Source: Eledone cirrhosa
Taxonomy: Eukaryota
Direction: 5' to 3'
DNA: 64,000 nt
Assembly: GCA_964016885.1 (NCBI GenBank)
Contig: OZ024742.1
Location: forward strand, 335,978,001-336,042,000
Part shown: in pieces, positions 6,518 through 29,648 of the stretch
Position numbering within the stretch: position 1 is the stretch's first letter
Layout of the letters: every line of letters starts with the position of its first letter
Made by a program: the position numbers and the translations under genes
The notes under the pieces: generated by a model
What the model saw: the letters and a program-made list of their open reading frames with translations, nothing else
Databases searched by the model: none
What the model was told of the DNA's origin: nothing

Positions 6518-6570
6518 CTGATGAGAACACAATTTTTGTCCCAGGATGATGTTGTTTTCGAAATGCGCAT
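6518..6570 (+). ncRNA. Hammerhead-like motif, probable decayed PLE 3' end
   Basis: CTGATGA-GAACACAAT...GTTGTTTTC-GAAA; followed by AATAAA and (ATGT)n. Confidence 0.45.
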
Positions 6571-6621
6571 AATAAAATATATGGAACTTTTTTAACGATC
6601 TTTTAATTTCTTCTTTATATT

Positions 6622-8775: not shown

Positions 8776-10884
8776 AGGAACAAGTATGGCCCCGACGGCA
8801 GAGCTCAAGCCGTTTCGACGGCTAATTCTGGACTAAATAAGAATTTTTAGCCTGGTAAATAAATAGCCGAACTTCTATATGGGAAGTTAGTAATTGTCAA
8901 AAGGATTGGTCAAAAGTGTGTTGTAAAGACATGATTCTATCATGGCATTTAGTGGGAGGTAGGGGTAGCTGAACTTGCCGGTAGAACAAAGAGGGAGTGG
9001 GGGAAACCCAGTCAAGCGTTGAAAGTGAAATCTATACAGCAGATTCTAAAGATAGTGTGTAGAAGGTCGAAAAAAGTGTACTAGAGAAGGGGAGGGGGGG
9101 GGGGGGTGAAAGAATAGGTAAATCGAAAGGGGGTAAACAAAAAAGCCATTATAAAAATGAGATAACAAATAATTTCTGGTTACTACTCCATCCCCACAAT
9201 CACCAAATCTCTCATTGGTATTGCTAAGCTATAGAAAAGTTTAATAGGTGGAGAAAAATACTAAATACGAGATTGTAGTAAAAGAATTTTATAAAGCCAT
9301 CTTTACAGGGGGTCTAACACCACTGCTATAGTTAGTAGTAATCAGCCAATGCTATCTTACAATGACAGGTTAATAAGTTGAGGACAAACATACTAAAAAA
9401 CTAATACGAAATATTAATTCAGAATACTAATACATAAATACTAATATATAAATACTAATGCAAAAATACTACTAAGAAATTTAGAAATCACGGAAATGGA
9501 GCAGCAACCAGAAAGAAAACAATTTACTGGGGTCTAACAGATCTGCTATAAAAATCGTAATCGGCCAATTCTATCTTAAAATTAGGGGGGGGGGGGCTAC
9601 AGAGGACCGATGGGCTGTATCGGGGTGGGCGAAAAGGTGAAAAAAAAAAAGAGACCAGGAAGGAGATGTGGGGTGAAAGGACTAGGAAGAGATGGGGGGG
9701 AAGAAGGAAATATAGAGGAAAAGATTTTAAAAAAAAAAAAGTTACGTCTACCTTTGTAAGCAGGGGTTACCCCTTACAAAATCGGCAAGTGGGCTGTTTC
9801 AGCCCTTGTCTACCCCCCTCCCCCCCGGGTCATTATGGGGTTTGAGGGTGAGGTAAGTCCTACGCAATCTTTTCGCTCACCCCGATGCAGCCCATCGGTC
9901 CTCTGTAGCCTCAGTACCCCCACCCCCCTAAATTTAAGATAGAATTGGCCGATTACGCTTTTTATAGCAGATGTGTTAGACCCCAGATAATTGCTTTCTT
10001 TCTGGTTGCTGCTCCATTTCCGTGATTTCTAAATTTCTTAGTGGTATTTTGCATTAGTATTCTTGTATTAGTATTTATGTATTAGTATTCTGAATTAATA
10101 TTTCGTATTAGTTTTTTAGTATGTTTGTCCTCAACTTATTAACCTGTCATTGTAAGATAGCATTGGCTGATTACTACTAACTATAGCAGTGGTGTTAGAC
10201 CCCCTGTAAAGATGGCTTTATAAAATTCTTTCACTACAATCTCGTATTTAGTACTTTTCTCCACCTATTAAACTTTTCTATAGCTTGGCAATACCAATGA
10301 GAGATTTGGTGATTGTGGGGATGGAGTAGTAACCAGAAATTATTTTTTATATATTTATTTCCTCATTTACATAATGGCTTTTTTGTTTACTCCCTTTCGA
10401 TTTACCTATTCTTTCAACCCCCCCCCCTTCTCCCGTACACTTTTTTTCGACTCAGACAAACACATACAGACATACATAGGTATGGCTTTATCAAATTCTT
10501 TCACTACAAGCTGTATAGAATCTGCTGTATAGATTTCACTTTCAACGCTTGACTGGGTTTCCCCCATTCCCTCTTTGTTCTACCGGCAAGTTCAGCTACC
10601 CATACCTCCCACTAAATGCCATGATAGAATCATTTGTCTTTACAACAAACTTTTGACCAATCCTTTTGACAATTACTATCTTCCCATATATGGAATTACC
10701 CCCTGAGAAGTTCGGCTATTTATTTACCAGGCTAAAAATTCTTATTTAGTCCAGAAATAGCCGTCGAAACGGCTTGAGCTCTGCCGTCGGGGCCATACTT
10801 GTTCCTATTACCCACTCTACTACCCTGAGTATTGAGTACTTTGGTGCGTTATGGTCCATCTGGTTCCTTACCACATTTCCTTCG

Positions 10885-10886
<2 letters not shown>
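8776..10886 (+). mobile_element. Non-coding PLE-type inverted element in (TA)n
   Basis: Arms 8776-9636 / 9868-10806, unique 80-bp tail 10807-10886, hammerhead fold in right arm. Confidence 0.8.
10690..10797 (+). ncRNA. Type I hammerhead ribozyme fold (core CUGAGAA variant)
   Basis: Stem I CCCC/GGGG plus TATGG/CCATA; stem II CGGCTATTT/AAATAGCCG; GAAA; stem III ACGGC/GCCGT; GUC site at 10786-10788. Confidence 0.75.
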
Positions 10887-10958
<72 letters not shown>

Positions 10959-11599
10959 GGTTTCTAACATATAGACAAGTCTTGTTCATTGTAATTGAGA
11001 CATCAACTAGGTAACTACCTATGTACGCCTGTATGTGTTTGTCTGAGTGTGTGTGAGGGTATGTGTGTTATTGGATATTTGGATCTGTATGTTTTGAGTT
11101 ATATGCGTTTTGTTGTGGTTCTGGCCTCCCCTGAACCAATTGCATAACCTTCATATTTCCTCATCATAAAGGACAAAGGGTTTACTGACAGTACAAATAG
11201 CATCACAAAGAGACTTAAAATACACGTCTGCAATATTCTATTTTATCTGTGACAATATAGTTCGCCTTTTTATTTGATATCAGGATAAGCATGCAGCTTT
11301 TCATCCATGCATTCGTTGCGTATTGTTGGGATTAACCTGAAAATCTAGTCTCTACTAAAATTCCCAAATCGGCTTGTCTCATATAGCCTCTGACAACCGA
11401 GGCTCAGCTCATGGCCTTCCAGTATATATGTAAACATAGGGAGACACAAAACAGGCTTTGTTTACAAACAGCTGGCGAATTTGAAAATTAGGTAGTAACA
11501 TGAATTTACACTCAAGATATCCCTAACAATGTTTCGTTCTTAAAACTTCAAACCTGCATATAATGTAGTATAGGAAAGGTAGAAACACCGAGGTACGAG

Positions 11600-11725
11600 G
11601 TAGATGACTGGTATTGACTGGACAAAGGTCTGACAACCATTTCATCCGACTTCCTGCATTCAGAGCTCAAATCCCGCCGAGGTCAACTTTGCCTTTTATC
11701 CCTTCAAGATCGATGAATAAAATAA
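11600..11725 (+). mobile_element. Degenerate SINE
   Basis: GAGCTCAAATCCCGCCGAGGTCAACTTTGCCTTT...GATGAATAAAATAAC. Confidence 0.7.
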
Positions 11726-11766
11726 CTGAGAGCGTCACACACACCCAGAGAGAGAGAGAGAGAGAT

Positions 11767-11805
<39 letters not shown>

Positions 11806-12245
11806 TGTATATACTATACTCGTATATGTGTTTTTGCAGAAGACAAGCTGACGTCAATGCATGCAAATCTTCCTATTCGACTTATATATATATATATATG
11901 TACTTGTGTGTGTAGCTGTGTATGCTTGTGGTTATGTGTAGACAGATAGAAACGCGAATTCACAGATATAGATACAAATAGTCACGCACACGGCAATACT
12001 CTGCCAGAAACATCAAATTGTGAAACTAAGTGACTAACTAGAAAAACTGTGTTAAGCATAATATAATCTTTAACGTTGCATGAATACATTATACGAGGCA
12101 ATGAAGCAGGAAATATATCTTGATAGAAGTGCAAATAGTCTTGTTTGCATTTCAATAATGTTTGAGTATGCAAATATATAAATACGTATATTTATATATT
12201 TATACACGTACACACATAAACACATGCATATGTATATAATACACA

Positions 12246-12291
<46 letters not shown>

Positions 12292-12292
<1 letters not shown>

Positions 12293-12491
12293 GTTATTCC
12301 GGGTTGAATCGGAGGTAACCACAGTAAGTAAGGTACTCAATACATAGCAGAGTATAACAGTTTTAATATAGATGAGATTCTACAGGACTAGAACTGTTTC
12401 ATTCATTAGAAATCATCCGGAATCAGAGATTCCTGATGATTTCTAATGAATGAAACAGTTCTAGTCCTGTAGAATCTCATCTATATTAAAA
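12292..12491 (-). mobile_element. Hairpin-plus-tail PLE remnant in (TA)n with a hammerhead core
   Basis: 64-bp arms 12361-12424 / 12428-12491 (1 mismatch, 3-nt loop); CTGATGA..GAAAC at 12433-12456; tail 12292-12360. Confidence 0.8.
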
Positions 12492-12611
12492 ATATATATA
12501 TATATATATATATATGCATATGCAAAGGGCATACTGAAATAACAAAGCAAACAACACAGTACAATGAAGAAATATATTATTAGTTTTACACTTGATGTAA
12601 GAGGAAAAAAG

Positions 12612-12647
12612 TTTTAACACTTCGGACGTTAGTCCTTCATCAGAAAA
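12612..12647 (-). ncRNA. Minimal hammerhead-like motif, decayed
   Basis: TTTCTGATGA-A-GGAC taac GTCC-GAAGTGTTA-AAA. Confidence 0.55.
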
Positions 12648-13347
12648 TAGAATGCGAAATTAAAACAGAAATAAAAGATTAGAGGACAGTGGGTAGTGGC
12701 AGAAACGAAAAAATATTCCTTCGAGGAAGAACAGATTTATTCAAGTTGCCATCGCTTAAAACGCTGCTGAATCTGGCGTTGGTGTATAAGACGATCGGTT
12801 GGTCTTGTAAAACAAGACAGTGATCGAATGCATCTAGCTGAAAAGAAGAAAATCGTTTTCTATATAGAGCGTGTGCGTATTTGTTGTTTGTCCGTACGAT
12901 GCTAAGAGGATATGTGTTTATATATAAGTTTAAGTGAATGTGTGTGTGAGTGCAGGCGCGCGTGTATTTTGTTGAGTGTGCGAAGCTGTGAGGATATGTC
13001 TATGTATACGTTTAAGATGATATGTGTATGTTAGTTGTTGGTCCGTACAGAGCTGTAAGGGTAAGTGTAAAGATGTGTGAGTGTTTGGGGTTGGTCTGTA
13101 CAAGCTGTAAGCGTGTGAGCTTCTGACCATAACAGAGCCATAGGAACCTAAGGGGTGAATGTGCGCGCGCATGTGTGATGGTAGGGATGGTAGGGATGTG
13201 TGCTATATATATATATATACCTGCATCCCCACCCCCCACCCACACACACACATATATATATATATATCAAATGAAGCAACGGAGTAAACGACTCGCGTTG
13301 TAAAAATACCCTGTAATGAAAAAGTATGTTCATTTCATGTATTCTCT

Positions 13348-13399
<52 letters not shown>

Positions 13400-13402
<3 letters not shown>

Positions 13403-13522
13403 TTGTTTTCGCTCTTAACGTGGGGGATAACTAAATGTATTCGTGAGTAATAATAGTAATAATAGTATATAATATTAATAATATTATGATATTATTATAT
13501 TGTTATTCACTCATGAATACAT
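13400..13522 (-). mobile_element. Small degenerate hairpin-plus-tail insert in (TA)n
   Basis: ATGTATTCGTGAGT (13435) / ACTCATGAATACAT (13522) closing an AT-rich stem; tail 13400-13434. Confidence 0.6.
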
Positions 13523-13636
13523 ACATATATATATATACATATATATATGGTGGCTGCCAACTCGTTTTCGAGTACGGCCACTACTTTATATCCATGTAGG
13601 GAAACCTCTACCAATGTGCTGAACGAGTGTGACTTT

Positions 13637-14157
13637 TCAGTCCAGCCAGCGACTTGAAAACTCTAGTACAAACACTACACTTGTAACAATTATTGACACA
13701 CAGTGCTGGGCCCATGGTACCCTGTGACGACAAGTGCAGAGAGATCTCCAGATATAAAGCAATGCCTGTGCCGTGAAGCTTTTATAGTGAGCAAAGGCAC
13801 TGCACAAAGCCAGTCCCACTCTCTTAACCAAGATGATATTTACCAAAAAGAAGAACAAGTCAACATCATTGGATACCATCAGGGTTGCAGGTGTTATATC
13901 AGAGTTTTCCTTCTCCTAGAATTCTGCCTTGACAAAGGCTAAGGGGTCATCTCTCCCAGTGATTTTGGATGGCCATTGACTCTTAAGAGCTCCTTTGCCC
14001 TTTGACAGGTTTTGTTTTTAGTCCTGCAGGATGTCCAAAGTCACCCTCCTCACCAAGAAACCTTGGTGGGGTTGCCAGTTTAGTCGTCAACGACCCGACC
14101 ATGAGACAGGTTGTACTGGGATACATGTTACCAGTAGCACCAAGTGGTGACCTGACA
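13637..14157 (-). mobile_element. Probable RTE-related 5'UTR or non-autonomous repeat
   Basis: CTAGGAGAAGGAAAACTCTGA motif recalled from RTE-type 5'UTRs; no ORF support. Confidence 0.35.
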
Positions 14158-14194
14158 TATACATATATATATACATACATACATACATACATAT

Positions 14195-14362
14195 ATACAA
14201 TATGTTGAAAAGGTAACACACTAGAGAGAGATAGTGCGCCATCAATAAAGCAGTGTGTTACCTTTTCAACATATTGTATTTTAACGAGCCCAGGATTCCT
14301 TCACCTTTGAGCACATATTGACAGGGAATAGCGAGAGTCTATGGCTCCGTTAATTTATCGTG
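14195..14362 (+). mobile_element. Hairpin-plus-tail insert in (TA)n
   Basis: Perfect 28-bp arms 14195-14222 / 14252-14279; AATAAA in loop; tail 14280-14362. Confidence 0.75.
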
Positions 14363-14383
14363 ATATATATATATATATATATA

Positions 14384-14464
<81 letters not shown>

Positions 14465-15009
14465 ATATATATGATGTATATATGTATATATATATATGAG
14501 AGTGAAAAGAGTATGGAAGAAAAGCACAGCGCATGTATACACAGCACAGCTCCACATATAACATACACATACACAAGTATAGTGAACACTATCTAGGCCG
14601 GTATTTTAAGAAGACAATCCACATCTTTATGAGAGATTGTTAAAAACAAAACGAAATAAAAACAACACAAAACGTAACATAACAGCTGTCATTAGTGACA
14701 GGGGAAAAAAAGCGTAGAAAATCGCGAGGGATAAACTATTTCTGATTGCCGCCATTACTAACATATTTTCCACGTTATTTTATTTTATGATGGCATTCAT
14801 CATAATCATCACCCCTCCTCTCCGCATCTTCATTCATCACAAGGTGACAAATAAGGGATGAAGGATGAAAGATAAATTGTTTGCTAGCATGCTAATTTCT
14901 ACAACGCGCCCAAGCTTTTGAACAGCGAAAGAATGCATAAATACGCGTTTTATGTTTTAAATATAGACGTACTCATAGATTCATAAGCATATATACGCCT
15001 TCTTATGAA

Positions 15010-15089
<80 letters not shown>

Positions 15090-15101
15090 CATACACATAA
15101 G

Positions 15102-15133
<32 letters not shown>

Positions 15134-15239
15134 CACATAAGTATATATTAAATTTCCAATGTACTTATATTACGGATATATATGTGTGTGTATGTGTGTG
15201 TATGTGTGTGTATGTGTGTGTGCGTCCCGGGCCCAATCG

Positions 15240-15400
15240 GTCGGACGCTATGCTTTGACGCATAGAGTTACGGCCCTTGCCATTCTGAGTTCGAATACCG
15301 CCGAGGTTAACTTTGCCTTTCATCCTTACGGGGTCAATAAAATAAAGTACCAGTAATGCACTGGATAATTGCTGGCCTTGTTCCAAACGTAGAATCAATT
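15240..15400 (+). mobile_element. 5'-truncated SINE
   Basis: Matches dominant SINE consensus. Confidence 0.85.
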
Positions 15401-15481
15401 ATTTGACTATATTATAGTAAAAAATATTACGGCGAAGCTTCTATTTCTATTTCTGTATATAATTATATATATTTTAAATTT

Positions 15482-15515
15482 CTGAAGAGAGCAATTCTTT
15501 CAGCTGAAATAGTTA
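15482..15515 (+). ncRNA. Minimal hammerhead-like motif
   Basis: CTGAAGA-G-AGC...GCT-GAAA-TAGT-TA. Confidence 0.5.
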
Positions 15516-15959
15516 GTTGAATAGGCTAATCATATTCATGTAATTTGTGAGTGGAATAACCCATTTAATAATAATTTTTGCTCCAACGACGAATATATAA
15601 TTATGTTATCATATCAGTATCTATGAAATATGGTTCTTCGAATTTTTTTTCTGTTATAAAAATGTATTTCACACACACACACGCACGCACGCACACACAA
15701 ACACAGACACACAGACTCATACACACACACACAGACACAGGCACACACAGACACAGACACACACACAGAAACGCGCGCCCGTACACACACCTTATGAATT
15801 ATCGAAACACTGGGAGTTTGAAGTTGGAGTATGTAAGAACCCTAAAGTTGACGCAGGCGCCTCTGTCAACGTTTCCGTTTCCAGGATCGATTTTATCATC
15901 TATTACTTATAGTGATCAACTGTTATTAAAGTTAATTGCCGCGTTCAGGATTCTCACAT

Positions 15960-16018
<59 letters not shown>

Positions 16019-16329
16019 TATGTATACGTACATACATATATGTATACAGACGTACAGTAGTATGTATATACATACATACATATATGCACACATATATATA
16101 TGTACGTATGGGTTTAGCGAGCATTTATTGTAATGTTCGGTGTGTTTGTAAACAAACAACCCGAATTAAGCCATACAGTGTTCGGCAACCATCGTCACCC
16201 TTTTGTTCAACACTGACAAAGGAATATATATATATATTTATATATATATATATATATATGTATATAATAAAGGAAAAGAAAATAAAGAAAAAATTTTAAT
16301 GTGTATTATTCACATGCAGGAACACATAC

Positions 16330-16421
<92 letters not shown>

Positions 16422-16423
<2 letters not shown>

Positions 16424-17297
16424 TTTCTGAATTTGTTTAGCAAGATTCTTTATCTGAAGACGTGTGTTGAAACCGGTATTGTTATACTTTGGGAGGGTCA
16501 TGTTGCCAGTAAGAAACACATGCACCAGTTGTTTCACTCCAATTTATTATAAATTAAATTATAAATAAAAAAAAATAAAAAAATAAAAATTATAAATTTC
16601 CGGTTAGTTGGTTGGTTCCACAACCGGACGGTTGTTCATATATTGTCAAAGTTCTTTCGTCACACATTATGTGACCTCTTCAGTGACTGGGGCTTCTTTT
16701 GTTTGTTTTGTGCCTCTCCTTTGTTCTGTCCTACGGCATCTTGTTTTTGTGTGTTGTGTGCTTAGTTTGCGCATGTGTTACATCCGGGTGTGTGTCTGTG
16801 TTTTTATTTGTTTATTTGTTTATTTATATGTGACTGGTTGGTTGTTTGTTCTATGTGTGTGTGTTTTCATTTTGTCCTTAATTGTAAGTTGTAATGTTGA
16901 TATTCCATCCATGTTTTCTATTTAATTTTGGTTGGAGTTCATTTATGTTTATTGCCTCTGTGATTTGTCTAAACATTGCGTCTTTTCTGTGTGTAGATTT
17001 TATTTTTATTTCTATTTTCTCTAATTTGCCATTATGTTCTATTTTAGCATGTTGGTGGAGTACTGATGATTCTTTTCTATCTTGAAGCTCTTGCCAGTCA
17101 CTGGAGAGGTCACAGAATGTGTGACGAAAGAACTTTGATAATATATGAACAATCGTCCGGTTGTGGAACCAACCAACCAACCAACAGTAAATTTATAATT
17201 TATTTTTTTTTTAATTTATAATTTAATTTATAATAAATTGGAGTGAAAGCAATAGGTGCGTTTGTTTCCTATTGGCAACATGACCCTCCCAAAGTAT

Positions 17298-17303
<6 letters not shown>
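16422..17303 (-). mobile_element. PLE remnant: GIY-YIG C-terminus, 3'UTR with hammerhead, tail, and inverted copy
   Basis: SVLHQHAKIEH...RQITEAININELQPKLNRKHGWN (~16890-17085); arms 16477-16690 / 17094-17303; hammerhead GTCA-CTGAAGA-GGTCACA..TGTGAC-GAAA-GAAC-TT-TGAC at 16645-16687; tail 16422-16476. Confidence 0.8.
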
Positions 17304-17385
<82 letters not shown>

Positions 17386-17582
17386 ATACAGTATTTACGT
17401 ATCGAGAGAGAGAAAAAAAGGGGAAGATAGGTGATACATATAGTTATTTGCCAAGTAGCGTATGCCAAAGGTGCTCGATACTAGTGTCGGCAGTATTAAA
17501 TATTCGAAGTGTTAATATTTAGTGGGCTAGAGAATTAGCAGAGCGTTTTAACGGTCTATTCTCCGATTTCTTACTTGCCCAC

Positions 17583-17629
<47 letters not shown>

Positions 17630-17630
<1 letters not shown>

Positions 17631-17825
17631 TAAAAAATTTAAATTAAATTAATTTAAGGGTGTCATGTCAGAGAGACATGCGCCATATCCACTGTAGAAT
17701 ATGCTCCAAGATTCCAATGAATAGATCCGAGCATTTTATATAAACTAGAAATTGATTGACATATATATATATCTAAAATAAACATGTTTATTTTAGATAT
17801 ATACATATGTCAATCAATTTCTAGT

Positions 17826-17826
<1 letters not shown>
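17630..17826 (-). mobile_element. Loopless 84-bp palindrome plus tail in (TA)n
   Basis: 17743-17826 centred on AAACA|TGTTT, 1 mismatch; tail 17630-17742. Confidence 0.7.
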
Positions 17827-17858
<32 letters not shown>

Positions 17859-17865
<7 letters not shown>

Positions 17866-18225
17866 GTTTGTATATGTATAATAAAGCCAAAACAATGCAG
17901 GTATGAACATAGAATAAAGAATGCAAATGAAAAAGATATTGTTGACAATTAGTCTTTTACCTTAGATTTATTTAAATGTCCTTAATTTTCGAGATAATAT
18001 CTCTTCTTCAGAGGGAACTAAAGCTGTTAATCCAGTGTTCTAAATAGCTTGCCAAGTCAATTAAGGACATTTAAATAAATCTAAGGTAAAAGACTAATTG
18101 TCAACAATATCTTTTGCATTTGCATTCTTTATTCTATGTCCATATCTGCATTGTTTTGGCTTTATTATGCATATACAAACGTTTATACCTCATTACACAA
18201 TGCTTTAAGTGAACTATAATCTCCT

Positions 18226-18227
<2 letters not shown>
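17859..18227 (+). mobile_element. Hairpin-plus-tail PLE remnant with a hammerhead core in the spacer
   Basis: Arms 17859-17987 / 18059-18187; minus strand CCT-CTGAAGA-A-GAGATATTATCTC-GAAA-ATTA-AGG (17980-18014); tail 18188-18227. Confidence 0.8.
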
Positions 18228-18264
<37 letters not shown>

Positions 18265-18269
<5 letters not shown>

Positions 18270-18458
18270 TTGAAAAAAAGGGAAAGAATGACTTCACTTG
18301 TAGTGTTTAAAAAATGGTGATTTAATTTCATATAATATTAACTCATAATATTATGATATAAAATTAAATCAAACATTTTTTAACGCTACAAGTGAAGTCA
18401 TTCTTTTCCTTTTTTTTCAAATATACCTAACTGTACCAAGAGTCTCACACATTTTCAA
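18265..18458 (+). mobile_element. Hairpin-plus-tail insert in (TA)n
   Basis: ~75-bp arms 18265-18340 / 18346-18425; tail 18426-18458. Confidence 0.75.
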
Positions 18459-18480
18459 ATATATATATATATATATATAT

Positions 18481-18527
<47 letters not shown>

Positions 18528-19050
18528 TAAAAGGAAAAGAAAATGCTAACAAATTGTTCCCAGTGAAAAATAGTTTAGGAATAAGTAAAAATTAGTAATA
18601 AGTATTGGTTAGTATTCAGTTTTAGTTTTAAGTTTTTACCGGTTGCGCATTTCTAATGCTTTTCAAAAATAATTTTGAGATAGAGCGCCCGTGATGTTTG
18701 CTCTAATCTGATTAGTTTTGGAAATTCTACCTGTTTTATGTGAAAAAAGTAGCTCCAGAAGTATTAAAATAAGTTTCGCGCCAATTCGTATTGCAAAAAT
18801 TCTTGTGGTCAAAACAAATTTGATTGGTCGGTAGAGGTCACGTGAATGTTAAAAATTGATTTTGCGCCAAATGTAGGTTTGTCGAAGAGTGTCCCTGATT
18901 GAGAAGTCACTGAAAAATAAGTCTTTTAAGACAAATATGTGTTTGTATGTGTAGTAAAGAGGTTCATTGTTGTGATAATGGTCAGTAGGGATGTGTGTGT
19001 GAATTGCAGTCATGTTGAAAAGTCAACAGTTCAGGTGCCTATTAAGACAA

Positions 19051-19148
<98 letters not shown>

Positions 19149-19329
19149 CAGAGTAATTCGTGGTAGAGGGATCCGCCAGTAGGAATGTGTCTGTACGTGT
19201 GTGGGGGATATTTTAACATGTTGAAAGATATATTTCAGCTCTTGTCTTATACGGAGAAGTGTGTGTGTGTTTGTATATGTCTCTTTGTATGTTAGTGTAC
19301 GCGTGTGTATGTGTGTGTGTATATATGTG

Positions 19330-19365
<36 letters not shown>

Positions 19366-19819
19366 GGGGGGGGGGCAGTATTTTTGTGATACTGGTAAAA
19401 ATGTTGTACATTATTCTATATTTTCAGCAAAAACGATTCTCTCAAGAGAACATCAAAAACATTAATAATAAAAGGTGTGAAATGATACATAGTATTGTCA
19501 TAACACAAAGGTGTGTGTGAGTGTCCAGATTGTACGTACTGCATGGGGAATCTATTAGGCCCTGCCGTATTGGAATACTTGTGTACAAATATGTATGTGC
19601 CCATCAGTGTGCAATGCATGTGTGCGTATCTGTATGTGTGTGTGTCGGCACGATTATATCTATAGACATCAAAAGGTATGCAAATTTGTGTATATTTGTG
19701 TTGCACCATAGAACATGTGTGTTTACCTATGTCATTGTGTTCATATGTGGATAGAGATGTATGCAGGATGTATGCTGATGTAGGTATGTATGTTGACGTG
19801 TGTATTTTGTGGGTTCGTC

Positions 19820-21686
19820 TTAGGGAGAAGTGTTTAGACGGGGTCCGTATTTGTTAATAAAGTGAGATTCCTTGCTGATGCGCTGGGTGTGGGTGGCATT
19901 ATCTTTAAATTTGTAGAGGGGAAATATTCTGAAGTTGGGATGATTTTGGGCGGCACAGGTATCAATGTGTTCACTGACTGGTATTTTCCTGTATTCCCGT
20001 ATTTTAATTTGGGATCTATGGACAGTCATGCGTTGGCGGAGGCTGTTTTTGGTCTGGCCTATGTATTGTTCTCGACAACCTGAGCAAGTTAATACATATA
20101 TTAGATTTTCTGATGCGCATGTGAAATTGTGTTTTACTATAAAGCGTTGTCCTTCTTTGAAATAGAATTCAGAACCCTCTATTAGGTTGATGCATATGCT
20201 ACAGTAGGGTCTATCGCATTTTTTTACTGTGGGTTTCGTTGTTGTGGTTGGCAGTACTTTGGCATGTGTTAGGATGTTTTTCATTGACTTAAATTGTCTT
20301 TTGTTCTTTATGATATCGTTTGTTCGAAGGATTTGATTCATTCTATGGTCCTTTTTTAACACAGGGATGTTCTGGAGGATGGTGTCAAAGGCTTCATTGT
20401 TGAGGGTGTTGTGTGTGGAGATGTATGGAAGAGCTTTTAGTTTCGGTTGATTTACTTTAGGGTGTCTAAGGTCCTGGGTACTGAGTTTTAGGGCACGTTG
20501 GATTCCATTGTCAATTAGTGATGCAGGGTAGTCTCTGCCTATGAGTGTGTCCTTTAGTTCTTGTAGCCGTAAGCATCTAGATATCGCTTCCAGTTCTTTT
20601 CTATGTGTAAGTGGAGAGTGTTTCCAAATTTGTTTAGTACTTTAGTGTAGAGGGTGATTTCCAGGTATCCCATGACTAGGTTGGCATAAGTGAGGGCTGT
20701 TTTCGTTCCCATAGCGGTCCCAGATTTTTGCCTGTAGGATTTGTTATTGAAAACGAAGTAATTATTCTCCAAGATAAATTTGTGTTCCTCTATCACGAAT
20801 TCTTTTTTTATACGTTGTGGGAGTTCATTGTGGTAATTATCCAGCCAGAATTGGATAGCTTCTATTCCTAGGTTGTGGGGGATGTTGGAGTATAGGTTGA
20901 CTACATCGAACGTCACTAGTAGGGTTTGTTCAGAAAGGGGCATATTAGGGAGGTGATTGAGCATATCTAGGTCGTCCCTTATATAGCATTTGATGTGTAT
21001 GAGAAAAGGCTTGAGAATGGTATCAATGAAGTTGCTAAGGCGGTTGGTTTCGCAAGCGAGGCCTGCTATTATAGGTCTTAATTTGAGATAATTGGGTGAG
21101 GGGACATTGATGACTATGTCTGTGGCTTCTTTGCATGCCTTACTTATTAATTCGCTTTTATGTACATTAGGGATAACGTAGAAAAGGCTGGATTTACTTG
21201 TGAAGTCTGTGATGAAGCGGAATTCCTTGTTAGTGAGTCCTTCTTTGTATTGGTTGATCAGAGTTTTTAGGTTTCTCATAATTTTCTGTTGATTGTAGTG
21301 TTCAGCCTGTTCGTAGTATGTTTCGTTTTCCAAAGTGGAGAGCGCTAAGTTGATATAGAATTCTGTCTCCATTAGGTCTACTGTACTCCCTTTATCAGCC
21401 TCTTTAATTGTAATGGTTCTGTCGGTTTTTAGTCTATTTAATTCTTCCCATTCTTTCTTGTTGAGGTTTGGCTTGTGTTTTTGTCTGTGCAAGTGTTGGT
21501 AAGGGAAGTTTGTGATGTGTTCACAGAATTCGTCCAGGATTTTATTCCTACCTTTTGATGGGGTGTAGTTGCTTCTATTTCTGGCTAATGATTCATCCTC
21601 ACTGTACTGGTCGAATAGTTCTTCACTGAGTCGTAACTTTCTACAGAAGTCTGTGATGTCTTCCTTCATTTCATAGTAATTAGGAC
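19820..21686 (-). pseudogene. PLE RT + GIY-YIG endonuclease, 5'-truncated, with internal deletion and frameshift after YLD
   Basis: ADKG, LRPIIAG, FDVVNLYSNIP, GTAMG, WKRYLD; second frame LRLQELK...KKCDRPYCSIC...NLIYVLTCSGCREQYIGQT..H..H..ESHFI..PRLN. Confidence 0.9.
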
Positions 21687-22038
21687 GTAGATACGCACAC
21701 ATGCATTGCACACTGATGGGCACATACATATTTGTACACAAGTATTCCAATACTGCAGGGCCTAATTGATTCCCCATGCAGTACGTACAATCTGGACACT
21801 CACACACACCTTGGATTATGCCAATACTATATATCATTTCACACCTTTTATTATTAATGTTTTTGATGTTCTCTTGAGAGAATCGTTTTTGCTGAAAATA
21901 TCGAATAATGTACACCATTTTTACCAGTATCACAAAAATACTGGTCCCCCCCCCCCACACACACACATACACACATATACATACACACACATATATATAC
22001 ACATACACATAGACACGCGTACACTAACATACAAAGAG

Positions 22039-22074
<36 letters not shown>

Positions 22075-22611
22075 ACTTCTCCGTATAAGACAAGAGCTGA
22101 AATATATCTTTCAACATGTTAAAATATCCCCGTACACACGTACAGACACACTCCTACTGACCGATCCCTCTACCACGAATTACTCTGCTACACACACACA
22201 CACACACATGCACACACACACACATTTGTCTTAATAGGCACCTGAACTGTTGACCTTTCAACATGACTGCAATTCACACAGAAATCCCTACTGACCATTA
22301 TCACAACAATGAACCTCTTTACTACACACACACACACATTTGTCTTAAAAGACTTATTTTTCAGTGACTTCTCAATCAGGCGAAAAAGGACACTCTTCGA
22401 CAAACCTACATTTGGCGCAAAATCAATTTTTAACATTCACGTAACCTCTACTGACCAATCAAATTTGTTTTGACCACAAGAATTTTTGTAACACGAATTG
22501 GCGCGAAACTTATTTTAATACCTCTGGAGCCACTTTTTTCACATAAAACAGGTAGAATTTCAAAAACTAATCAGATTAGAGCAAACATCACGGGCGCTCT
22601 ATCTCAAAATT

Positions 22612-22650
22612 ATTTTTGAAAAGCATTAGAAATGCGCAACCGGTAAAAAT
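22612..22650 (+). ncRNA. Minimal variant hammerhead (mirror copy 18632-18670, minus strand)
   Basis: ATTT-TTGAAAA-GCATT aga AATGC-GCAA-CCGG-TA-AAAAT, identical core in both arms. Confidence 0.55.
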
Positions 22651-22797
22651 TTAAAACTAAAACTGAATACTAACCAATACTTATTACTAATTTTTACTTA
22701 TTCCTAATTAAACTATTTTTCACTGGGAACAATTTGTCAGCATTTTCTATTCCGTTTACCAATATATCACAACTCGTGTGTTACACCTCTATTCTTT

Positions 22798-23380
<583 letters not shown>

Positions 23381-24164
23381 TTTTGATTTAAAAGAAACAA
23401 AAAGAGCTTATTTATTATACTTTTAAAATGTATTTTTTAAATATATGGAAAAAATATTAAGATTAAACAATAATTAACAAAAATTAACTAACTAAACATT
23501 TGCTATGGGGTTGTGAACATTGCGCGCGCACAATGTAGCTGTAGTTATGCCTTTAAACGGACGTGCAACACATCCTAATTTGAGCTAATATTGTTTATTC
23601 TTGTCAGTGAGTATACTGCTTTCGTTAAAGATATTTCTAGTTTTACAATTATTCTTTAAACATTGTTTAGTTTGTGCCAAACCCCATTATGCAAAAAAAT
23701 AAAAAATAAAAAATAAAAATGCAAATGTAAAATGTAAAATATTACAAAGAAAATGGACGGTTTTATATTTTTTGTCGACTTTAAGGGTAAATCTACAAGT
23801 TTGTTTTGCAATAACCACATTTCTGTTGCTAAAGATTATAATGTTCAACGGCATTACGAAAAGAATTTCAAAGAATATAGTGGCAAGATTCGAGAAGAAA
23901 ACTATGCTAAATTATACACTCACACAATCTGTACTCTTATTTTTTTAAAGTGTGATGCTGCAGTTAGAGCTAGCTATGTGATTGTAAATAAGATATCTTT
24001 CCCTGTTGTATAGCCTTTGAAAGGCCATACAACAGGGAAAGCTATATTTCAATCTTTGGATAGATTAGGCATAAATTGAAAAAGAAAATGGTGAATATTA
24101 CTACAGATCGAGTTCTGCAAATGGAAGGCAATGATTTAGGTGTAGTGGTCAAATGAATATCAAA

Positions 24165-26400
24165 ATTGTAGGCTACAAATACTACGCCTTCTAGTGGGAC
24201 CTGTCAGTTGCAAAAGTCTCCAATTGAACCGACTGGGTCCCCAAGACAGACCAGCCGAACTTCTGAATGTTATCCAACTATCTTGCTCGGGATCTACCCC
24301 TGGGTCTCCTGTTAGTTGGTTTTGCCCATGAAATCTGTCCGGCGATTCTTTCCTGATACATTCTAACCACATGCCCATAGTATCGGAGCTGTGATCTCTC
24401 AATTCGGAGATGTAGTGGCTTTACTTGGAGCGACTCCAAGTAGAGCCACTTGAAATTCTCCACTTACTTCAGTGGAACTCAACTCACATGTAAAGTGCAC
24501 TGTGCAGGCTTCCTTGAGATGACGAGTATTTCTGTCTCCAAAGCACTGATTTTTTTCTCTTGCCGTGCAGCACTCTGCATCAGACAAATCAAACGCATGC
24601 TGGAGATCACCTTTTGATGAGTTAAATAATACTATGTCCCCAGAAAATTCTACCCGACTTATCTTCTTACAACTGCCAGTCATATCACATTCAACCCGGC
24701 TGCGCATGTCAATCCTGTTCATGAAGGTTATGAACAGGAGAGAGGGCAACAAGAAGCTGTCCATCGACTCCATATTCCCGCAGAACCTGCTACAGGTGGT
24801 CTCGGATAATGCAGTCATAAGTCTTGTCGAGGTCTACGAAACAAGCATATGCCTCTTGGCAATATTCACACGATTTCTCAAAGACCTACTGCAGTGTGAA
24901 TATTTGGCCGGCTGTTCAGCGTCTGGGACGAAATCCTCACTGTTTATCAGCTAGTTTGGAGTCGACAATATCCCTACATCTCTTTACCGGATACTTAGTA
25001 TAGAGGGATGCTTAACAAGGAGATCCCTCTATAATTGGAGCAGTCTCTCTTGTCTGCCATCCTGAAAATTGGGATCACCACTCCCGATTGCCATTGCTTA
25101 AGTACCTTTCATGATATCCAGGCCACCCGGTACACACGAGTCAGCCAGAGAATAGCTTCTGTTTAAGGCTTTCAACATCACGGGACGAATTTCATGCTCC
25201 CCAGCAACCTTTCCACATTTGAGCTCTTTAATATCTCTTGTGACCCCAGCGTCCGGGAGATTAGTCATCTCTCTTAGATACACCTCGTGTAGTTCGGAAA
25301 ATATTGGTGTGACCGGGACTCTCTAAAGAGAAGAGAACTCCTGACGCGTTCCTGATATTTGGTATGGTGGGGACTGTTTATTATGAAGTCGGCGTTTGGG
25401 CTGGTAGAACACATTATATGGTGATCTGGAGTTGGATTATAGCTTAACCCGAAAGTCCTCCCTTGTCTTAACTTTAGACACCTTTATTGTCTCTGCTGCG
25501 ACATTCCGCGCCTGCTTATACCGCAAGTGCAAGAAGGATGACTCATTTCCATGACAAGCTTTGTTTGCTCGGATGGCATTTTTGACCTTGATTAAACCAA
25601 GGGGCCATCCTACCACACGGCGCCACATCAAGCCGCTTTTGCCCGCAGCATTTAACTGCTGATGTAGAAACTGCCGAGCTAAACAATCTCTACTCCGTTT
25701 CAACGTCCTCAGTTTGCTCAGAGCTCTCTGAATTTTGATGCAATAGTATCCTCAAACCAGTTCCTGACTTCTTTATCCGCCAAAACTTCCCATTATATCC
25801 TGTAGCTTGAACTGGACCTGCAGGTTTTGTGGGCTTCCTTGACCTTAGGTGGTCTCAGGTTGCCGATAACTAGATGGTGATCAGTTGACAGCTCAGCCCC
25901 CCCCCCCTCTTAATATGAACATCCAGCACAAAATCGAAGCGGTCAGAAAACAATAACATAATTATTTATTTATTTCTGTCCCTGATTCCCGTTTTACCAT
26001 CTCTTTTATCTCTTTTACCTGTTCCAGCCATCCGGCTGAGGCTATGCTGGGACACCGCCCTTGGTGTATTTATGAATCTCTTTTTGCTGGAAGCTGTTCA
26101 TAATAGAGATCCCATTACTAGAACAATTATATTTACAACGGGATCGATTTATATATTTACATCGTCAGTGCCAACATGTCCACTGAAGTCTCCCATCAGG
26201 ATAAATGACTCAGTCTTAACTACATCTAACAGTGACTTCTTCAAGGAAAGATCTGTATTCAGACTCTTTGTTTGGTGCATAAACTTGCACCACCCTCGGA
26301 GACCTATCTTTCAGCCTAAACTTCAAGAGACAAATCCTCCATCCAAATCGGATTCAGCCCATAGCACATTCTGAAAACGTTCTTACGGGAAATGAAGCAA
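24165..26400 (-). mobile_element. RTE-clade LINE, degenerate, with internal deletions
   Basis: VYAPN, ILMGDFSGHVG, LSTDHHLV, CSNYRGISLLS, CFVDLDK, QLRYYGHVVRM..RRPRGR. Confidence 0.85.
25990..26065. mobile_element. Short SINE fragment of a different family inside the RTE
   Basis: ATCTCTTTTACCTGTTCCAGCCATCCGGCTGAGGCTATGCTGGGACACCGCC interrupts the APE region; family recalled, not searched. Confidence 0.4.
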
Positions 26401-29564: not shown

Positions 29565-29648
29565 CACTACTAGTACTACTACTACTACTACTACTACTAC
29601 TGCTGCTTCTGCTGCTGCTGCTGCTACTACTACTACTACTACTACTAA

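Follow-up and report, generated by a model that had tools for sequence, protein, structure and literature searches.

Hairpin-plus-tail inserts at (TA)n runs of Eledone cirrhosa: nine insertions with the signature of Penelope-like elements

The DNA described here is a 64,000-nucleotide stretch of the Eledone cirrhosa genome (contig OZ024742.1; hereafter the window), in which nine inserts, E1 to E9, lie within 14 kb. Each consists of an arm, an inverted copy of that arm and a tail on one side only. These inserts are probably independent, 5′-truncated insertions into (TA)n runs that carry the signature of Penelope-like elements (PLEs), each likely built by both cut ends of the target copying one source element. 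The layout was described in an earlier note on the same DNA, and self-BLAST of the segments between (TA)n runs, combined with direct reading, confirmed it for all nine inserts (starts at 8776, 12292, 13400, 14195, 16422, 17630, 17859, 18265 and 18526 in that note). The tails measure 33–110 nt and the arms from about 28 nt to 1.1 kb; the tail stands on the left in E2, E3, E5 and E6 and on the right in E1, E4, E7, E8 and E9. The statement that all nine lie in (TA)n holds for the layout, except that the left flank of E4 is (TACA)n/TATA and not pure (TA)n. A separate detector recovered eight of the nine inserts together with one simple-repeat segment (16017–16223), and tail-type matches were found in 0 of 266 shuffled segments. 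The nine were said to share no extended similarity, and indeed no BLAST match joins any pair of them (dust on, E ≤ 0.01).

Genome searches returned 241–2333 first-look candidates per family (40 candidates were scored per search); every insert belongs to a large family, and none of the nine is single-copy. The tails, described earlier as unique, are so within one insert, but every tail belongs to such a family. End points were counted over 255 loci, with overlapping loci left unmerged. In eight families, all but that of E3, copies stop at two fixed positions: S2, the end of the tail, and S1, where the inverted arm has its outer end, 33–107 nt inside S2. S2 is followed by (TA)n in 63 of 70 cases in the E1 family and in 40/53, 34/45, 35/41, 18/30, 26/30, 30/34 and 32/35 cases in the other seven. 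The distance of S1 from the tail end is 77 nt in the E1 family (28/38), 61–74 nt in E2 (28/38), 79–84 nt in E4 (22/38), 54–56 nt in E5 (15/19), 107–110 nt in E6 (7/17), 40 nt in E7 (13/15), 33–34 nt in E8 (19/24) and 33 nt in E9 (10/14).

The turning point and total length differ among copies of the same family, indicating that every copy arose by its own insertion rather than as a duplicate of a fixed miniature inverted-repeat transposable element (MITE). An origin as MITEs, or as foldback DNA transposons targeting TA, would account for the small size, the lack of coding sequence, the inverted repeats, the many copies and the TA target; however, the copies share nothing but their ends, the repeat does not reach the end of the insert on the tail side, where the tail lies outside it, and six families run into reverse transcriptase (RT)/GIY-YIG open reading frames (ORFs). 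Of the explanations weighed here, this is the least probable.

PLE reading frames joined to the terminal repeats

A PLE-type RT and GIY-YIG ORF is joined to the terminal repeat in six of the nine families, those of E1, E2, E5, E7, E8 and E9, with the E1, E2 and E5 ORFs recognized by motifs and cross-hits, and the identity of these six families as PLEs is held with high confidence. All six show the inverted 5′-truncated copy and the one-end tail, with tails of 33–77 nt. The earlier proposal that many unrelated PLE families leave hairpin-plus-tail stumps at (TA)n is thus borne out for six families, while E3, E4 and E6 are tied to PLEs by their insertion signature only. Of the three conditions named there as refuting the proposal, two, namely single-copy hairpins and hairpins that never border PLE ORFs, are contradicted.

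As had been noted, two of the inserts are coding. E9 (18526–22800) contains a tail-less copy on the minus strand (18526–21702), a 5′-truncated PLE with an RT frame at 21702–20557 and a thumb/linker/GIY-YIG frame at 20641–19823 (Pfam GIY-YIG, E = 1.9e-6), whose 3′ untranslated region (UTR) stops at the arm end, 18526. The tail-side copy, on the plus strand (21689–22800), comprises the inverted 1.1-kb arm (21689–22760) and the tail (22761–22800). E5 (16422–17301, minus strand) is made up of a tail (16422–16479), a tail-side copy extending to about 17100 and an inverted arm (17094–17301), the arms being joined over a 7-nt overlap. Its GIY-YIG C-terminus (16881–17100) was placed through longer relatives, and the frame in the window has no Pfam match; likewise, the family frames of E1, E2 and E5 had no Pfam match.

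The other four inserts of this group are ends of PLEs. E1 (8777–10885, plus strand) is the non-coding 3′ end of a Hydra-type PLE, with the inverted arm at 8777–9636, the tail-side arm at 9869–10808 and the tail at 10809–10885. E2 (12292–12491, minus strand) is likewise the end of a Hydra-type PLE, with the tail at 12292–12360, the tail-side arm at 12361–12424 and the inverted arm reaching 12491. E7 (17863–18227, plus strand) is the end of a PLE with a C-terminal GIY-YIG domain (family Pfam match, E = 3.6e-7); its tail-less arm (17863–18058) is longer than its tail-side arm (18059–18187), which is followed by the tail (18188–18227). E8 (18265–18458, plus strand), composed of a hairpin (18265–18425) and a tail (18426–18458), is the end of a PLE related to the E9 family.

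The junctions of terminal repeat and ORF were located in both directions. The tail reads directly into an ORF in the families of E1 (L128), E2 (L035, L292, L302), E7 (L102) and E9 (L238, the start of the family's ORF), and the E8 tail reads into an ORF 30–45% identical to that of E9 (L322, L324, L326, L329, L336 and others). A nuclease lies upstream of the arm in the E1, E5, E7 and E9 families; the ORF stands upstream of the E1 end in L111, L128, L131, L133 and L135 and of the E7 end in L083, L087 and L094–L096, and the GIY-YIG domain upstream of the E5 end in L125, L170, L189, L192, L194, L291 and L292. In E8, the N-terminus and RT are joined to the tail, and the nuclease was not securely seen. 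The terminal repeat flanks the ORF on both sides, as a pseudo-long terminal repeat (pLTR) in partial tandem, in E1 (L128), E7 (L318) and E9 (L319); it was found on one side in E2 and E8 (before the ORF) and in E5 (after it).

The motifs of these proteins point to at least two clade types of PLE families in one cluster. E1 and E2 have RWR in the RWK-like position, DKT for DKG, a CxCX5C linker and YRDD, and lack GxKF; in E1, CxxC precedes the conserved E and CCHH is absent, a lack fully shown for E1 only, as the E2 frame examined stops inside the nuclease. By these motifs alone, E1 and E2 are assigned as Hydra-type PLEs. E5 and E9 possess a CX2-5CxxC linker and CCHH in the nuclease and are classed by motif as Neptune/Nematis-type, with Neptune and Nematis not told apart, while E7, with CCHH and no CX2-5CxxC match, is assigned to neither type. 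E8 is classed as a relative of E9 by homology of its N-terminus and RT. Named homologues of the protein of one element come from Octopus species, with up to 78% identity over a short stretch.

Formation of the two arms

The arms were compared in a set of 315 loci. From these, 191 distinct hairpins, belonging to eight families, were aligned to long natural copies, E3 being excluded for want of a reference. After removal of 9 hairpins that contain (TA)n internally and of 28 whose unaligned bases exceed 30, 154 remained. In 101 of these, the arms reach equally far to within 20 nt, and their ends cluster at stops typical of the family. In the other 53, the tail-less arm is the longer one 38 times and the tail arm 15 times (p = 0.002). 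The window copies E4, E7 and E9 have the longer tail-less arm, and the tail arm of E9 lacks about 2 kb of ORF and UTR present in its tail-less copy. A tail-primed strand that folds back cannot copy sequence it has not reached, and a strand primed at S1 cannot give the tail; consequently, two primings are needed unless a deletion followed later. The joins between the arms contain no stray base in 68 hairpins, 1–5 in 59 and 6–30 in 27.

The two arms agree at subfamily sites in 298 of 309 comparisons for E1 (96/99), E2 (44/45) and E5 (158/165) together, against a between-copy agreement of 43–51%, which indicates that both arms come, as a rule, from one source element. Private variants number 26 in both arms and 213 in one. 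At the end points, an alternating T/A tract of at least 3 nt is present in the element in 13 of 17 cases (nearby background 22%, p = 2e-6), which suggests that a TA end of the target may pair with the element RNA.

A two-ended route with a single source is favoured somewhat above even by these data. In such a route, the GIY-YIG nuclease would cut both strands of a (TA)n run, and, as (TA)n is self-complementary, either end could pair with a short U/A-alternating RNA tract. One end would start at the outer S2 and the other at the inner S1, which would leave the tail on one side only. Both copies would stop early, often at a family-specific strong stop 100–330 nt in, and would be joined head to head, in most cases with 0–5 stray bases. 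One copy may also fold back on itself before joining, which the data do not separate from direct joining. As a broader and tentative proposal, rated below even odds, several PLE clades and their non-coding passengers, including the ribozyme-less E6, would all integrate in this two-ended manner, with (TA)n ends pairing with two fixed U/A tracts of one RNA and copying proceeding head to head, so that the tail and the inverted arm would be a single by-product.

Several observations weigh against this reading. The ends of the E3 family are loose, with the tail end followed by TA in 11 of 34 matches and the ends scattered over about 11 nt, and for E3, E4 and E6 an autonomous partner was not found. 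Arm agreement reaches only 13/19 in E7 and 2/3 in E8. The hairpins were collected with tail-side queries and are thus a non-random set, a few rows of which belong to sister families and match the reference less closely. The drawing of boundaries beside (TA)n favours the TA-tract count, and the start sites observed in vitro are not homologous to the cut DNA (PMC11167929). Among the shorter arms, 4 of 38 end at a strong stop of the family against 4.9 expected, and 0 of 15 against 0.6; among the longer arms, 24 of 53 do so, a pattern that a symmetric hairpin shortened later by deletion on one side would give as well. Finally, no empty allele was seen, and target duplications are unreadable inside (TA)n. 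Independent stopping of the two arms at family hot spots, which was also considered, is not supported by the strong-stop counts of the shorter arm, which are at chance.

The earlier note had proposed one fold-back pathway for all inserts. In its tail-first form, a copy primed at the tail end stops and folds back to S1, and copies with the longer tail-less arm later lost part of the tail arm, palindromes being unstable. The subfamily alleles and 26 private variants shared by the arms, the near-symmetry of the 101 hairpins, and the tendency of the longer arm to end at a strong stop and of the shorter to end at an arbitrary place are all consistent with this pathway. It predicts, however, a tail arm at least as long as the tail-less arm at birth, the reverse of the imbalance observed, and is thus not supported as a single pathway unless later deletions are invoked; these would have to be one-sided and to remove about 2 kb in the window copy of E9, more than 500 nt in L107 and about 360 nt in L302. 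It also leaves the fixed S1 unexplained, a point that corresponds to one of two RT start sites seen in vitro (PMC11167929). Tail-first fold-back is the strongest competitor of the two-ended route, at a probability of roughly one in four. As a separate observation, both arms reach the tail end in six loci (L006, L009, L014, L018, L019 and L040), where one of the two arms either continues into the following unit or stops at (TA)n; both ends can therefore start at S2.

The two arms could also derive from two RNAs of different parent copies, as they differ at family-variable sites in 3 of 28 E1, 3 of 18 E5 and 5 of 10 E7 elements. An agreement of 96–98% in E1, E2 and E5, with 1–3 scattered differences per element and no switch of a whole subfamily, speaks against this origin, and the hammerhead difference between the E2 arms is ordinary mutation (see below); the two-RNA explanation is considered improbable. 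Still less credence is given to fold-back chimeras of assembly or library preparation. None of the listed reads and contigs, which amount to 16 of about 3500 pieces, bridges the turning points of the locus, as a chimera would lead one to expect, but the arms differ by 2–5% on average and by indels, and their outer ends fall at family-fixed sites. In addition, the E7 family shows head-to-head joints in raw short reads from two further samples: 150-nt restriction-site-associated DNA reads under the same species label contain such joints at other turning points, that is, from other copies, for example one with 43 and 83 reads (start places: 1 and 2) and one with 11 and 5 reads (start places: 7 and 3).

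Hammerheads and the non-coding families

Hammerhead cores were found in four inserts, fewer than the five claimed earlier. E2 has a complete motif, E1 a variant with a 6-nt core (near 10699–10792), E5 a minimal core (16683–16655) and E7 a core with stem II only, on the minus strand of its tail-less arm (18011–17987). The copies of E8 and E9 that were examined yielded no hammerhead, and no hammerhead family was among the 72 Rfam matches. Those matches, to microRNA and small RNA models on simple repeats and hairpins, all fell below gathering scores and were set aside.

In E2, the complete type I hammerhead lies in the inverted arm (plus strand, 12426–12478), and the core in the tail-side arm has one base changed. 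An arm-specific switch of the ribozyme was entertained, as six loci had the changed base in the tail arm and an intact core in the other arm. It was dropped: genome-wide, 73 copies are non-T at this place, with all three other bases represented, and the 30 examined comprise 14 tail arms and 16 tail-less arms, so that the apparent switch was a query bias acting on ordinary mutation. The intact E2 motif has 15,811 genome matches within one mismatch, of which several thousand probably lie in one satellite array. A satellite of 78-nt units of the E2 hammerhead region, each ending near S1, was observed in L316 (C28:30636000–30645999), where 10 kb contain about 90 matching cores. Matches on the same strand extend across approximately 30.50–30.86 Mb, and the surplus of about 3900 forward matches would correspond to an array of roughly 300 kb. 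Other hammerhead-like sequences were noted in the E5 tail (16454–16472, on the strand opposite the ORF, with a similar tail in a related family in L035) and outside the cluster on the plus strand at 6518–6571.

The tails of E3, E4 and E6 continue into a non-coding unit and come back to the same end after about 340, 538 and 555 nt, respectively. The arrangement seen is end-unit-end, repeated head to tail, and no long arrays of these units were encountered. E3 (13400–13524, minus strand; tail 13400–13434, hairpin 13435–13522) is a stump of an older non-coding family with a degenerate hammerhead-like motif, found in one of five loci; the sole core-like match among 20 loci falls outside the unit. 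E4 (14195–14362, plus strand) has a longer tail-less arm (14195–14250), a tail-side arm (14251–14279) and a tail (14280–14362). Its unit contains a full type I hammerhead fold, with the core in 21 of 25 loci, at a position beyond the reach of the window copy. E6 (17630–17827, minus strand; tail 17630–17738, hairpin 17739–17827) is the stump of a family in which a canonical hammerhead was found in 0 of 20 loci, and for this reason it is not filed as a retrozyme. PLE ORFs beside E3, E4 and E6 were considered as partners and rejected, as the matches occur at some loci without consistent distance, orientation or family. Insertion of E3, E4 and E6 by PLE enzymes is nevertheless judged likely, at clearly lower confidence than the PLE identity of the six coding families.

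Surroundings, known systems and abundance

Other repeats accompany the inserts. Two further (TA)n-flanked multi-copy segments without a clear arm, 16017–16223 and 17378–17583, have 48 and 12 BLAST matches, respectively, among the collected loci, window overlaps counted in. Between E2 and E3, a multi-copy repeat (12516–13203) has no inverted arm and carries a hammerhead-like core on the minus strand (12643–12620), and a small hairpin at 23980–24054 has neither (TA)n flanks nor a second copy among the collected loci. A repeat at 22830–23390, which we take to be short interspersed element (SINE)-like, forms an inverted duplicate around a 300-nt (TA)n, with a short reversed copy on the left and a copy to the usual end on the right. 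A few flanking bases are duplicated too. The structure resembles a fold-back at the level of DNA at (TA)n and differs in this from the nine inserts. Long inverted duplications of other sequence stand beside hairpin families in L053, L113, L060 and L029 and are perhaps further families or host DNA. Broken frames on the minus strand at 24200–26400 have no significant Pfam match and resemble a long interspersed element (LINE), and a 518-amino-acid frame upstream of the window (L320:5124–6677), also without a Pfam match, resembles the C-terminal part of another retroelement. The large satellites at 29566–63908 are triplet-derived arrays and arrays of 56-bp (about 210 copies), 23-bp (about 252) and 90-bp (about 20) units.

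The hairpin-plus-tail layout itself is already published. PLE insertions with an adjacent inverted 5′-truncated copy, a 30–40-bp tail often present at one end and (TA)n targeting have been described, along with non-autonomous Chlamys derivatives (Craig et al. 2021, PMC8557442), and an inverted pLTR 37 bp shorter than the direct pLTRs, with an optional tail, has been reported (Arkhipova et al. 2013, PMC3846280). The inserts share with these endonuclease-positive PLEs the inverted truncated copy, the one-end tail, partial tandems, hammerheads in the repeat of some families, (TA)n targets and the GIY-YIG domain at the C-terminus. They differ in that the tails measure 33–107 nt rather than 30–40, most copies are non-coding and 120–550 nt long, and several clades occur within 14 kb. 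E1 and E2 share RW(R), DKT, CxCX5C, YRDD, the hammerhead and the (TA)n target with the Hydra clade, although the E1 hammerhead core is one base short; PMC8557442 lists few molluscan families. Both motifs of the Neptune/Nematis type in that paper, CX2-5CxxC and CCHH, are present in E5 and E9, in contrast to the hammerhead, which was not found in the E8 and E9 copies examined.

The closest biochemical parallel is Poseidon of Anolis, for which the PLE protein cuts and extends both strands in vitro and two internal RNA start sites bound the tail (Frangieh et al. 2024, PMC11167929). Two fixed points bounding the tail and an AT-rich target are common to both systems. Poseidon starts without homology to the cut DNA, whereas here a TA tract holds 13 of the 17 end points, and the inverted arm is not modelled in the accessible part of that report. 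Non-coding hammerhead tandems have also been described, with a proposed PLE origin (PMC7229834; bioRxiv 10.64898/2026.07.22.740005). In sequence, E4 resembles these metazoan non-LTR (long terminal repeat) retrozymes in its non-coding unit of about 538 nt, single type I hammerhead and partial tandems, and E3 is similar but decayed, while E6 differs in having no canonical hammerhead. The word "inverted" is absent from the main text of PMC7229834, and an octopus repeat annotation (2026, PMC13282606) lists Penelope families and, in its available text, mentions neither hairpins nor hammerheads. In a literature search that left older subscription papers and supplements outside its reach, no two-ended priming model for PLE inverted arms and no such stumps in cephalopods were found. 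What stands out here is the abundance of the inserts and the signs of two-end priming.

Abundance was estimated from forty evenly spaced 10-kb stretches of contigs C1–C4 (400 kb), which contain 24 hairpin-plus-tail inserts, at most 3 per stretch, or 60 per Mb (95% range 38–89); 10 of the 24 match one of the nine window families. If the sampled rate holds across the 3.0-Gb assembly, the genome-wide total is estimated at 1.2–2.7 × 10^5 inserts. The 14-kb cluster, in which 8 inserts were detected against 0.84 expected (8 of 30 TA runs, against 24 of 517 in the sample), is about ten times denser than average and was selected because it is dense; in the rest of the window, the separate detector found no hairpin-plus-tail insert.

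An estimated 10^5 or more inserts of this kind, most of them non-coding, would be missed or called MITEs in annotation. The counts of arm lengths, alleles and start sites bear on the origin of the inverted copy, called an open task in PMC8557442, and on microsatellite targeting. The nine families offer specific substrates for an in vitro test, and, if the two-ended route is true, the 10^5 or more stumps would chart where copies naturally start, stop and are joined in a step left undefined in the literature.

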